64,000 bases of DNA from Thermoanaerobaculia bacterium (lineage in GTDB: Bacteria > Acidobacteriota > Thermoanaerobaculia > Multivoradales > UBA5704), in the NCBI GenBank assembly GCA_035556715.1, contig DATMER010000063.1, forward strand, positions 4,270 to 68,269. The letters are read 5' to 3'. Below the pieces are notes generated by a model that was given only the letters and a program-made list of their open reading frames with translations, did no database searches and had not been told where the DNA came from. The position numbers and the translations under genes are program-made. How positions within the stretch are numbered: the stretch's first letter is position 1; every line of letters begins with the position of its first letter. Below are positions 31,201 to 34,200 of the stretch, piece by piece.

Positions 31201-34200
31201 GCGCGGAGACGTCCAGGCGGCCGGCGAACCGGAGGACGCTGCTGATGTTGTAGAACGAGCTGTCCGGATCGAACTGCCCGAGGAACCAGAGCCTCTCCTG
31301 GGAGAAGGAGAGGGGCCGCGGCTCGTCCGGCTTCCAGGAGCGGCGGGGAATCCCGCCCATACTTCCGCGCCCGGCACGGACCTCGTAGCCGAGCGCGGCG
31401 GCCATCCGGACCGTGGGCACGCCCAGGAAGTCCTCGGGATAGGCCTCCCGCCAGCGCTCCGCGGTGCTCGCGTCGATTCCCGAGTAGGAGTGGAACTTGA
31501 CGTCCCCGAGCATCCGCGACTCGGCGTGGAGGCCATCCGTCATGCGGCGGGAGCGGTCCTCGTAGGGCTGGAGCATGGCCGGATGGAAGTCGAGCCCGAG
31601 GAAGTCGCAGAGGCCGCGCAGGACCGGCTCCGGGTCGCGCACCAGGTCTTCGAAGCGGACCAGATGCCGCCGCTCCTCGGGCACCCCGTCGAGGAAGCGC
31701 AGGATGTTCTCCTGGCTGACGAGCCAGATCAGCTCGGCCAGCTCGCGCCGCGTGAAGGGGTGGTCGTAGCGGAAGAAGACCTGCTCCAGGCGGGCCTCCT
31801 CGAAGGAGCGGATCATGCCGTAGGGGTGGCGCAGCAGGTGGACGTAGCGGGCCCCCTCGAAATCGGTCTCGGCGCGGCGGAGGATCTCCAGGTCGAGCGG
31901 GTACGAAGGAGTCTTGTCGATCAGCAGCCTGTCACCCAACCATTCTTGGAGCTGGCGGTAGGCGCGCCGCACGGTCCAGCCGTCCCTCTCCCAGGTCTCG
32001 ACGGTCTCCGCGGCCTCGTCCGGGCCGCAGCCGCGGACTTCCATCACGGCGCGGATCAGCCCCTCCAGGGAGAAGCTGTCGCGGCCGGTGTAGGCGGCGC
32101 GCCGGTCGGCCAGGGCGTTGAAGTTGAGCATCTCCAGCTCGGGCGGCGCGAACAGGCGCGGATGGCCCGCGAGCATGACGCGCAGCAGGGTCGAGCCCGA
32201 GCGCGGCGGCGAGAGGACGAAGACCGCGGGCGGGTTCTTCGGCTCGTCGGTGGCGAAGGGTGAGAGGGGAGTCACGATGGCGCGGAGGCGCGCGATCTCC
32301 TCCTCGCCGACCCGTCCCGCGGCCGCCTCATCCAGCAGAGCCACCGCCTCGCCAAGGCTCTCGCGGCCCCAGATCCGGGCCACGGCCTCGGGATAGCTCT
32401 CGACCAGGTAGGCGGCCATGCGCTCGACCGTGGGCGCGTCGAAGATGACGACCACGTGCACGATCTCGCCGAGCCTCTCCTGGAGCTGGTTGATCAGGAT
32501 GGCGCCGGAAATCGAGTTGCCGCCCAGGCCGAAGAAGTCGTCGTGGATGCCGACGCTCTCCAATCCGAGCGGAGCCTTCCAGAGCCCGGCCAGGAACTCC
32601 TCCAAGGGCGTGCGCGGCGCCACGTGCTCCCGGTCCTCGGGAGCCGCGGTATCGGCGATGTCCGGAGCGGGGAGGAGCTTGCGGTCCACCTTGCCGTTCG
32701 GGGAGAGCGGCAGGGCCGGCAGCACCACGAAGGCCGCGGGGACCATGTACTCGGGCAGCGAGGCGAGCAGATGCCGCCGCAGCTCGGGCACGGCGGTCTC
32801 GACGGTCTCCCCCGCCGCAGTCAGGTAGGCGACGAGGCGCTTGTCGCCCGGCCGGTCTTCCCGGGCCAGTACCACGGCCTCCTTGACCGTGGGATGGGCG
32901 CACAGGGCGGCCTCGATCTCCCCCAGCTCGATGCGGAAGCCCCGGATCTTGACCTGATGGTCGAGCCGCCCCAGGTACTCGATGCGGCCGTCGGGCAGGT
33001 GCCGGCAGAGGTCGCCGCTCTTGTACATGCGCGAGCCCGGCGATCCGAACGGATCGGGGACGAACCGGTCCGCCGTGAGCGCTGGCCGGTTGAGATAGCC
33101 GCGGGCCAGGCCCACGCCCGCGATGTACAGCTCCCCGGGCACGTTCATGGGCACCGGCCGGAACGCGGGGTCCAGGATGTGGATGCGCAGGTTCGAGATC
33201 GGCCGGCCGATCGGGACGACCGGCCTCCCGCCCGGCACGCAGGCCCAGACCGTGACATCCACCGCGGCCTCGGTAGGGCCGTAGAGGTTGTGCAGGCCGG
33301 CGAAGGCTCCCAGCTTGGCGAAGAAGCGCTGCTGCAGCTCGAAGGGGAGGGCCTCTCCGCTACAGATTACCCGGCGGAGCGACGCGCACGTCTCCACGCC
33401 CGGCTGCTCCAGGAAGACCTGGAGCATGGACGGCACGAAGTGGAGCGTGGTCACCCCTTCGCGCCGGATCAGGTCGGCCAGGTAGGCGCTGTCCTGATGG
33501 CCGCCGGGCCTGGCCACGACCAGTCGCGCCCCCACCATCAGGGGCCAGAAAAACTCCCACACGGATACGTCGAAGCTGAACGGAGTCTTCTGGAGCACCA
33601 CGTCACCGGACGTGAGGCCGTACTCAGCCTGCATCCAGACCAGCCGGTTGACGATGGCCTCGTGGGTGTTGACCGCGCCCTTGGGCCGGCCGGTGGAGCC
33701 GGACGTGTAGATGACGTAGGCCGGGTGCTTCGGGAGGACGGCGGAGCGCGGTGCCTCGGGCTCCGGCGCGTCCGCCAGACTCTCCCGGGTCAGGAGGATC
33801 GGCTGCTCGATGCCCTGCTGGAAGTCCTCCACCATGAAGGCCAGGCGCTCGGGCGGGTAGGACGGATCGATCGGCACGTAGCAGGCGCCGGACTTGAGGA
33901 TGCCCAGGAGGCCGACCACCAGCTCCAGCGAGCGCTCGGCGGTGATGCCGATCCGGGTCTCCGGGCCGGCGCCCTGCCGGCGCAGCCGGGCGGCGAGCCG
34001 GCCGGCCCGCTCGTCCAGCTCGCGGTAGGTGAGGGTCTCGCCCTCGTAGGTGAGGGCCGGCGCGTCCGGCGTCCGGCGGACCTGATCCTCGATCCATCCA
34101 TGCAGCGGCCGCTCGAGGTCCCAGTCCACCCGGGTGTCGTTCCACTCCCGGAGGAGGTGCTGGACCTCGGCCTGTCCGAGGACCGGCAGGTCGGAGAGCC

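Follow-up and report, generated by a model that had tools for sequence, protein, structure and literature searches.

Introduction

What does a sulfotransferase domain (ST) do in the middle of an NRPS, directly after a module predicted to activate serine, and what becomes of the sulfate? The 64-kb stretch of DNA analyzed here, which belongs to an uncultured bacterium of soil, probably a member of the Acidobacteriota, and is referred to below as the window, raises this question with a 7954-aa synthetase for which an initial annotation had claimed a CurM-like ST between the T domain of the fifth module and the next C domain.

Organization of the assembly line

The system is encoded on the (-) strand, as an operon of 38 kb, by NRPS gene 1 (54489..62534, 2681 aa; A-T-C-A-T-C-A-T, modules 1-3), NRPS gene 2 (48295..54492, 2065 aa; C-A-T-C-A-T, modules 4-5), whose start and stop codons overlap both adjoining genes, and NRPS-PKS gene 3 (24434..48298), a single unbroken ORF of 7954 aa with the domain order (C-A-T)x5, ST, C-A-T, KS-AT-ACP-TE. 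The A-domain codes of gene 1 are DALVLGAVYK (no substrate given), DAWFLGHVVK (Leu-like) and DLFNNALTYK (Ala), and those of gene 2 are DAWFLGHVVK (Leu-like) and DLFNTALTYK (Ala-like); such codes are predictions, and the substrates named are those we presume them to specify. Around the ST, the gene 3 boundaries are T 5228-5301, ST 5351-5635 and C 5657-6095, which leaves no space between these domains for an added lyase domain. Domain annotation of the 7954-aa protein found no KR anywhere in gene 3.

A complete CurM-type sulfotransferase

Pfam, phmmer and an AF2 model place the ST at 31394..32248 on the (-) strand (31380..32240 in the initial annotation), in the position between T and C that had been claimed. 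Two of the checks that had been proposed, a Pfam search for Sulfotransfer_3 and a structure-prediction comparison with the CurM ST, agree with the assignment: PF13469 matches significantly (E 9e-30; bit score 105, cut-off 27), and the AF2 model (pLDDT 91.9) superimposes by Foldseek on the CurM ST 4gbm with TM 0.91 and rmsd 2.2 A and on the OLS ST 4gox with TM 0.88, the next-nearest fold family being tyrosylprotein STs at TM ~0.55. Searching the PDB with phmmer gave end-to-end alignments to the same two proteins (E 2.8e-65 for 4gbm, E 7.5e-65 for 4gox). This similarity is far above chance, and at the level of sequence and predicted structure the gene 3 domain is confirmed as a complete CurM-type sulfotransferase.

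Both the PAPS signature and the IDKTPSYP motif that had been claimed are present in frame, as SPPRSGSTLLRVMLAGHP and LLIDKTPSYP. The 5'-phosphosulfate loop PRSGST corresponds to R5366-T5370, Glu5387 aligns with CurM E60, the proposed base, and other key residues are Lys5462 (in IDKTP), Arg5490-His5491 (of the RHP...S 3'-phosphate motif) and Ser5498. The roles of the PAPS-binding and catalytic residues in CurM are reportedly those described by McCarthy et al. 2012. Positions R39, S40, G41, T43, E60, K133, R161, H162 and S169 in CurM numbering are kept in the window ST and in 103/103 NRPS-type relatives. The suggested alignment of the catalytic Glu/His and PAPS contacts therefore holds for the Glu and the PAPS residues but not for the His, as the CurM/OLS His62 position is occupied by Glu5389 in the window ST and by Glu in all NRPS-type STs. 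This replacement could be taken to favor an ST that leaves the module 10 Ser unmodified, being a decayed relic or an enzyme for a later ketide hydroxyl or enol or for a substrate in trans. We consider such a role very improbable: the PAPS-binding and catalytic positions are all retained in the 103 relatives, and the Glu is universal across the NRPS-type clade, so that it does not reflect decay. The PKS module, moreover, has no KR to form a hydroxyl.

The serine module upstream of the ST

The A domain of module 10, the fifth of gene 3 (32681..34201, (-)), has a Ser-type code, and the code derived by hand in the initial annotation, DVWHISLVDK, was reproduced exactly with GrsA numbering. This domain scores 588 bits against Txo2 and 414 bits against EntF, compared with 424 and 292 bits for the next A domain, that of module 11; we take the solved A domains of Txo2 and EntF to be Ser-activating. 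The module 10 carrier (T) domain (32396..32617, (-)), whose phosphopantetheine Ser is residue 5262 (32513..32515), has LGGNSI in place of the usual LGGHSL. Across the related loci, T domains preceding an ST are of a GG[N/S/T/D]SI type that is specific to pre-ST carriers, whereas other T domains have GGHSL, and this distinct type indicates that T and ST are a co-evolved pair.

T-ST cassettes in related loci

At least 591 relatives occur among GTDB species genomes, of which the best 79 loci formed the comparison set. These 79 are mainly Thermoanaerobaculia/Acidobacteriota MAGs, in which A-T-ST-C dominates and A-T-ST-TE is common too, so that the architecture, described in the initial annotation as non-standard, is indeed uncharacterized but is not rare. 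Many Acidobacteriota genomes carry the T-ST cassette, often with 2-3 copies in one synthetase. An orthologue, L001 (80.6% identity over 1239 aa), keeps the Ser-T-ST-C arrangement.

The codes of the A domains directly upstream of T-ST are of the Thr, Ser or Tyr type in 67/73 cases (Thr 31, Ser 26, Tyr 10), against 5/84 for the remaining A domains of the same genes (Fisher p ~8e-31, a value that overstates independence because the loci share phylogeny). In an NJ tree the ST sequences group by upstream A code, with 10/11 Tyr-associated STs in one Tyr clade, and the NRPS-type STs make up a clade of their own, to which CurM and OLS do not belong. Enrichment and clustering together strongly support the earlier proposal that the ST acts on the Ser of the preceding carrier. 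From the upstream codes, the grouping of STs by code and the special carriers, we infer that the substrate of the ST is almost certainly the residue held by its own carrier, with sulfate going to the side-chain hydroxyl; here that residue would be Ser, modified in cis. Both the code association, which is very strong, and the co-clustering of STs with codes argue against an ST with some other target. A locus that fits that alternative is in Agrobacterium vitis, where a free-standing A-T-ST-TE with the non-hydroxy-type code DAEVVGAVA adjoins ectB; this code and neighbor suggest that other nucleophiles are used by some family members.

Fate of the sulfate

Two outcomes had been put forward, O-sulfoserine and dehydroalanine, and on the evidence below the balance tilts to retained sulfate. 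The explanation we favor, at roughly an even chance, is that the ST is an active PAPS-dependent O-sulfotransferase acting on the module 10 Ser and that the sulfate ester is retained in the product. The assembly line would then incorporate 11 amino acids and one ketide, with the ST built into elongation module 10. The A domain would put L-Ser on the specialized GGNSI-type carrier, and the ST would dock this carrier and transfer sulfate to the Ser beta-hydroxyl, which would be the 3-hydroxyl of a 3-hydroxyacyl thioester and hence the position that the CurM ST sulfonates. Sulfonation would precede condensation, the chain then being handed to module 11 by an ordinary C domain. The sulfate ester would most likely last into the released product, a peptide predicted to be hydrophobic, rich in Leu, Ala and Val, and to carry a single O-sulfoserine close to the C-terminus.

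The second explanation, which we regard as possible though doubtful, is that sulfonation is a cryptic activation, in which Ser-O-sulfate is made on the carrier and the sulfate is then lost. Its departure might be a beta-elimination, which gives dehydroalanine, or a displacement, the neighboring nucleophile being the preceding amide oxygen (giving an oxazoline), the incoming amine (a beta-lactam/aziridine type product) or the thiol of a Cys-like next residue (a thioether). In the CurM and OLS STs, the only biochemically studied members of the family, sulfonation serves activation (PMC6274090), and the window ST is homologous to them over its full length. The chemistry is suitable as well, since the Ser hydroxyl lies beta to the thioester and the alpha-proton is acidic, and 57/73 ST modules are coded for Ser or Thr, the residues that give dehydroalanine (Dha) and dehydrobutyrine (Dhb). 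The remaining hydroxy residue bears on the choice in the other direction: the sulfate of Tyr cannot be eliminated, yet ten Tyr-coded modules share the ST clade. So do the Nostoc FkbM-FkbH-T-ST-C glycerate loaders, which are non-eliminating and whose STs, 57% identical to the window ST, nest in the NRPS-ST clade of the NJ tree, where these Nostoc loci represent the FkbH-type STs. Tyr-coded modules and sulfate-keeping loaders within a single ST clade are among the grounds on which we favor retention. Tyr codes are found in 0/13 modules before ST-TE and in 10/56 before ST-C, a distribution in the direction expected if sulfate is expelled but not significant (p = 0.19).

The C and TE domains downstream of the ST are unremarkable. 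The post-ST C domain (30014..31330, (-)) has an ordinary HHIASDG motif, and when 78 post-ST C domains were compared with 96 others no column separated them, the largest frequency difference being 0.41, in the N-terminal linker. A distinct subclass would be expected there if dehydrating C domains (CmodAA type) were the route to Dha/Dhb, and none was apparent in this comparison. The terminal PKS module (24437..28168, (-)) consists of KS 27014..28168, AT 25769..26614, ACP 25262..25480 and TE 24437..25198. Its TE is of a generic NRPS type, with the AB3403 NRPS TE (4zxh) as best match and no CurM TE among the matches at E <= 0.001. Nor was a CurM-type TE found at locus L009, where the TE directly follows the ST and is again generic (one TE examined), and in a TE tree post-ST and other TEs are mixed, with a few Arg-rich columns differing between the two groups, of which the second comprised only 6 controls. 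The plain character of the downstream C and TE domains, and the lack of space for an extra lyase between T, ST and C, likewise favor retention, and neither a lyase-like domain nor a lyase-like gene turned up. The beta-sulfated acyl-ACP of CurM is reportedly stable until its TE acts (Gu et al. 2009), which also counts against cryptic activation.

Displacement by a thiol draws some support from the window itself. The module 11 A domain (28490..30037, (-)) has the code DLYDFSLIWK on a Cys-like scaffold and outscores the Ser A domain against two A domains of known structure, those of BmdB and PchE, both presumably Cys-activating. Modules following ST modules in other loci, however, show no enrichment for Cys-like codes. 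We hold only tentatively that the cassette might be a PAPS-driven NRPS route to dehydroalanine and dehydrobutyrine, in this synthetase possibly leading to a ring or a thioether onto the adjacent Cys-like residue.

Some considerations count against a retained sulfate. We know of no nonribosomal peptide with O-sulfo-Ser or O-sulfo-Thr, while Dha and Dhb are common in nonribosomal peptides. In the two structurally characterized homologues, CurM and OLS, sulfate functions as the leaving group.

Genomic surroundings and novelty

No PAPS-supply gene, sulfatase, dedicated exporter or sulfur-metabolism gene is present in the 64-kb window; we counted the first three absences against the favored explanation. 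When non-NRPS ORFs from the 10-kb flanks of all loci were clustered in search of a recurring lyase, sulfatase or PAPS gene, only antisense artefacts of NRPS genes recurred; the flanks are nearly all synthetase, so that this result says little either way.

In the literature that could be searched we came upon no account of NRPS elongation modules with an ST linked to Ser, Thr or Tyr. Allopeptimicin and an Entotheonella paper were considered as precedents and set aside, as each concerns a free-standing ST. In-line NRPS STs have so far been described just for the glycerate starters of a few cyanobacterial protease inhibitors, and what appears to be new here, judged from sequence, is the T-ST cassette on regular elongation modules for Ser, Thr and Tyr. 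To our knowledge almost no natural products have been characterized from Acidobacteriota. If the sulfate is kept, these loci would make a class of nonribosomal peptides not seen before, sulfated and strongly anionic, and structure predictors or synthetic-bioinformatic approaches that ignore the ST would give the wrong molecule. If it is expelled, they would provide a new enzymatic path to dehydro-amino acids, a widespread third route besides dehydrating C domains and lanthipeptide enzymes. With either fate the T-ST pair would be a tailoring unit that is both compact and portable and whose substrate rule can be read, which makes it directly testable and of potential use in engineering.

Comparison with known systems

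The CurM and OLS STs resemble the window ST in fold, family, PAPS loops, Lys and proposed Glu (~40% identity), and in a substrate that is a carrier-tethered thioester with a hydroxyl at C3. They differ in context. The CurM/OLS ST stands in a PKS ACP-ST-TE arrangement after a KR, which provides the hydroxyl, and a specialized decarboxylating TE expels the sulfate to give a terminal alkene; the window ST follows a C-A(Ser)-T module in a gene without KR and precedes an ordinary C. Termination of the CurM type needs an ST followed by a TE, whereas here the ST is followed by C-A-T-KS-AT-ACP-TE.

Lanthipeptide biosynthesis first phosphorylates or glutamylates Ser and Thr and then dehydrates them by elimination. 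It resembles cryptic activation in turning a Ser hydroxyl into a leaving group on the way to Dha, and differs in being ribosomal, in using other enzymes and in always having a dedicated lyase or elimination domain, of which none is seen in the window.

SulN is free-standing, acts in trans and N-sulfonates 2,3-diaminopropionate, the modified residue then passing to a beta-lactam-forming TE. In sulfazecin biosynthesis it depends on PAPS to sulfonate a residue that is still bound to an NRPS carrier, before release (PMC11298585).

The initial annotation had confined known assembly-line STs to PKS ACP-ST-TE, which proved incorrect: FkbH-T-ST-C NRPS modules that load glycerate have been described in the cyanopeptolin (Oci), dysinosin (DysB) and suomilide/varlaxin (AerB) synthetases, and the sulfate is kept in the products, which are cyanopeptolin-1138 and oscillapeptin E for OciA, the dysinosins for DysB, and suomilide and varlaxin for AerB (PMC2533009, PMC6520454, PMC10143770). 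As in the window, the ST of these systems is part of an NRPS, with a carrier immediately upstream and a C domain downstream, and its substrate is a three-carbon 3-hydroxyacyl thioester, as it would be for carrier-bound Ser. They are loading modules, supplied with glycerate through FkbH and often O-methylated, whereas the module described here is a mid-line elongation module fed with Ser by an A domain. The sulfated glyceric acid of the FkbH-type products is the oxygen analogue of sulfoserine.

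An intact CurM-type sulfotransferase domain follows the serine module

Three overlapping, co-directional minus-strand genes encode one assembly line: gene 1 (54489..62534, A-T-C-A-T-C-A-T), gene 2 (48295..54492, C-A-T-C-A-T) and gene 3 (24434..48298), which has five C-A-T modules, the sulfotransferase (ST) domain, a further C-A-T and KS-AT-ACP-TE. All of these domain types are borne out by Pfam, and no KR, E or MT domain was found by Pfam in the synthetase genes. The ST domain spans residues 5351-5635 of the gene 3 product (31394..32248, minus strand). The initial annotation had proposed a sulfotransferase here, directly after a serine module, and this is confirmed: Pfam Sulfotransfer_3 matches with 105 bits, the crystal-structure sequences of the CurM ST (E 2.8e-65) and olefin synthase (OLS) ST (E 7.5e-65) align with it end to end, and an AlphaFold2 model (49 homologues, pLDDT 91.9) superposes on the CurM structure 4GBM with a TM of 0.91 and an rmsd of 2.2 Å. 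In both fold and sequence it is a member of the CurM/OLS ST family. The sole low-confidence stretch of the model, residues 230-250, corresponds to the mobile active-site flap described for the CurM ST.

Both ST motifs quoted in that annotation occur in frame. When 103 NRPS-type relatives were aligned with CurM and OLS, the PRSGS/T loop, the PPEL glutamate (CurM E60, the proposed base), the DK(S/T)P lysine, RHP and the next serine were invariant, and the window ST keeps every one of these PAPS-loop and catalytic residues. CurM/OLS His62 is a glutamate in all 103 NRPS-type STs aligned, and because the change is universal there it marks a subfamily rather than decay.

Predicted residues of the assembly line

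Stachelhaus codes were extracted by GrsA numbering and read against published code tables, so that the substrates are predictions. The starter module 1 (DALVLGAVYK) is left unassigned. Modules 2 and 4 are Leu-like (DAWFLGHVVK), modules 3, 8 and 9 Ala (DLFNNALTYK), module 5 Ala-like (DLFNTALTYK), module 6 Ala (DLYNNALTYK), module 7 Val (DALWLGGTFK) and module 10 Ser (DVWHISLVDK, exactly the code derived initially); module 11 has a Cys-like scaffold and is followed by one malonate extension. The module 11 A domain (28490..30037) has the code DLYDFSLIWK, with Asp at position 278, which resembles the Cys code DLYNLSLIWK. It scores better than the Ser A domain does against those of BmdB, PchE and FmoA3, which activate Cys or alpha-methylserine. 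Its partner C domain has a standard HHxxxDG motif and is not of the cyclisation kind.

Gene 3 also contains tandem 21-nt (7-aa) repeats on the minus strand, 11 copies at 35898..36128 in the A domain of its module 4 and about 6 at 45442..45600 in that of its module 1; both A domains are Ala-coded. The encoded heptads, rich in Gly, Leu, Pro, Glu and Arg, are insertions that separate motifs A8 and A10 and make the A sub-domain about 60-75 residues longer.

A 665-aa ORF (22417..24414, minus strand, coding-like GC3 0.93) lies 20 bases downstream of the synthetase; it has no Pfam or NCBIfam match and may be part of the cluster. An M20 peptidase gene (20882..22399) follows it, a TAP-like hydrolase is also among the operon neighbours, and farther away lie genes with housekeeping roles: heptosyltransferase-type genes, the nuo operon and the gene of a T2SS/T4P ATPase. 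The 64-kb window holds no gene for PAPS synthesis, no sulfatase gene and no obvious exporter.

T-ST cassettes follow hydroxy-amino-acid modules

GTDB, scanned at one genome for each species, gave at least 591 relatives, and the best 79 loci were annotated with HMMs from the window's own domains. Nearly all of these loci come from MAGs of Thermoanaerobaculia or of other Acidobacteriota; Chloroflexota and Nostoc contribute a few. The window's own sequence has a match in an ENA metagenome contig. The closest locus, L001, is an orthologue (80.6% identity over 1239 aa) that keeps A(Ser)-T-ST-C-A. The commonest ST context is A-T-ST-C, often two or three per protein, and A-T-ST-TE is a common terminus.

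Among the 73 A domains directly before T-ST, 31 have Thr, 26 Ser and 10 Tyr-type codes, leaving 6 others; the 84 other A domains of the same genes comprise 1 Thr, 4 Ser, no Tyr-type and 79 others (odds ratio 176 for Thr/Ser/Tyr codes before T-ST; Fisher p about 8e-31, inflated because the loci are related). In a neighbor-joining tree the STs group by upstream A code, 10 of 11 Tyr-associated STs falling in one Tyr clade, and CurM and OLS fall outside the NRPS-ST clade. Carriers before an ST are nearly always GG[N/S/T/D]SI (window, 32396..32617; T domains of L001-L079), and 97 of 114 other carriers in the same genes have GGHSL. Taken together, the A-code bias, ST clustering and carrier type indicate a co-evolved T-ST cassette, the ST very probably targeting the side-chain hydroxyl of its own carrier's residue. 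The earlier reading that the ST acts on the Ser of the preceding carrier is essentially right, and an inactive ST, or one with another target, is very improbable. Seen against the related loci, what looked like a single odd domain is an instance of a rule: hydroxy-amino-acid modules precede T-ST.

The GG[N/S/T/D]SI motif makes carriers that are paired with an ST easy to recognise from sequence. Two or three cassettes occur in one NRPS protein in L008 (A-T-ST-C-A-T-ST-C-A-T-ST-C), L077, L011, L021, L033, L063, L065, L066 and L067; the peptides predicted from such proteins would carry several sulfates or several dehydrated residues.

Fate of the sulfate

The initial annotation offered two products, O-sulfoserine or dehydroalanine (Dha). 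The evidence leans toward retention, although computation alone cannot settle the matter, and we give about an even chance to sulfonation with the sulfate kept in the product. Tyr sulfate is incapable of beta-elimination, and the STs linked to Tyr sit within the NRPS-ST clade like any others, which adds weight to retention. The Nostoc loci are FkbM-FkbH-T-ST-C loaders. The literature credits the FkbH-T-ST module type with the glyceric acid unit, sulfated and O-methylated, that occurs in cyanopeptolin-1138, dysinosins, suomilide and varlaxin (PMC2533009, PMC6520454, PMC10143770). In such modules a 3-O-sulfated three-carbon thioester crosses a C domain with its sulfate kept, and this thioester is the closest chemical counterpart of an O-sulfoseryl thioester. 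The Nostoc FkbH-type STs are nearer to the window ST (57% identity) than CurM is (about 40%), which again argues for retention. So do the neighboring domains: no column tells post-ST C domains of the related loci from other C domains, the post-ST TE of L009 is of a generic NRPS type with CurM TE absent from its PDB matches, post-ST TEs as a group form no single clade in a mixed TE tree, and there is no room for a lyase-like domain between T, ST and C.

Alternatively, the ST may sulfonate Ser as an activation step after which the sulfate leaves, which we regard as possible but rather unlikely. Dha and Dhb are common residues of nonribosomal peptides, ST modules are mostly Ser and Thr, and we know of no nonribosomal peptide with O-sulfo-Ser or O-sulfo-Thr. 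The next residue in the window may be Cys-like, so that capture of an electrophile is conceivable. In the two biochemically studied homologues, CurM and OLS, the sulfate serves as a leaving group (PMC6274090).

A(Ser/Thr)-T-ST-TE ends occur in L006, L009, L012, L016, L018, L024, L026, L044, L051, L052, L055, L058, L059, L061, L062, L076 and L078, a peptide counterpart of the CurM ACP-ST-TE; if they performed CurM-like decarboxylative elimination, C-terminal enamides would result.

Comparison with known systems

A cultured bacterium, Agrobacterium vitis VAT03-9 (plasmid pRvVAT039a, NZ_AP023281.1), encodes a free-standing 1215-aa A-T-ST-TE (13057..16704 of locus L081, code DAEVVGAVA), with ectB (diaminobutyrate transaminase) immediately before it and cysD-cysN some 2.3 kb away, a setting that fits a real PAPS-dependent function of the T-ST cassette. 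This protein may be a relative that N-sulfonates its substrate, much as in the logic of sulfazecin, and hints that some family members sulfonate amines.

The architecture had been called non-standard; it is less exotic than that, since other STs built into NRPSs are on record and many Acidobacteriota share the arrangement, but it is uncharacterised. No description of A-domain-fed Ser/Thr/Tyr ST modules was found in the literature searched, largely without subscription papers. T-ST modules are chemically consequential. Unlike CurM-type termination, the window line has a C domain after the ST, no KR and a TE that is not CurM-like; it is not a CurM-type termination system. Closest in working mode are the FkbH-T-ST loaders, which likewise have an in-line ST; they differ in that the window ST sits in an elongation module, where an A domain supplies a proteinogenic amino acid.
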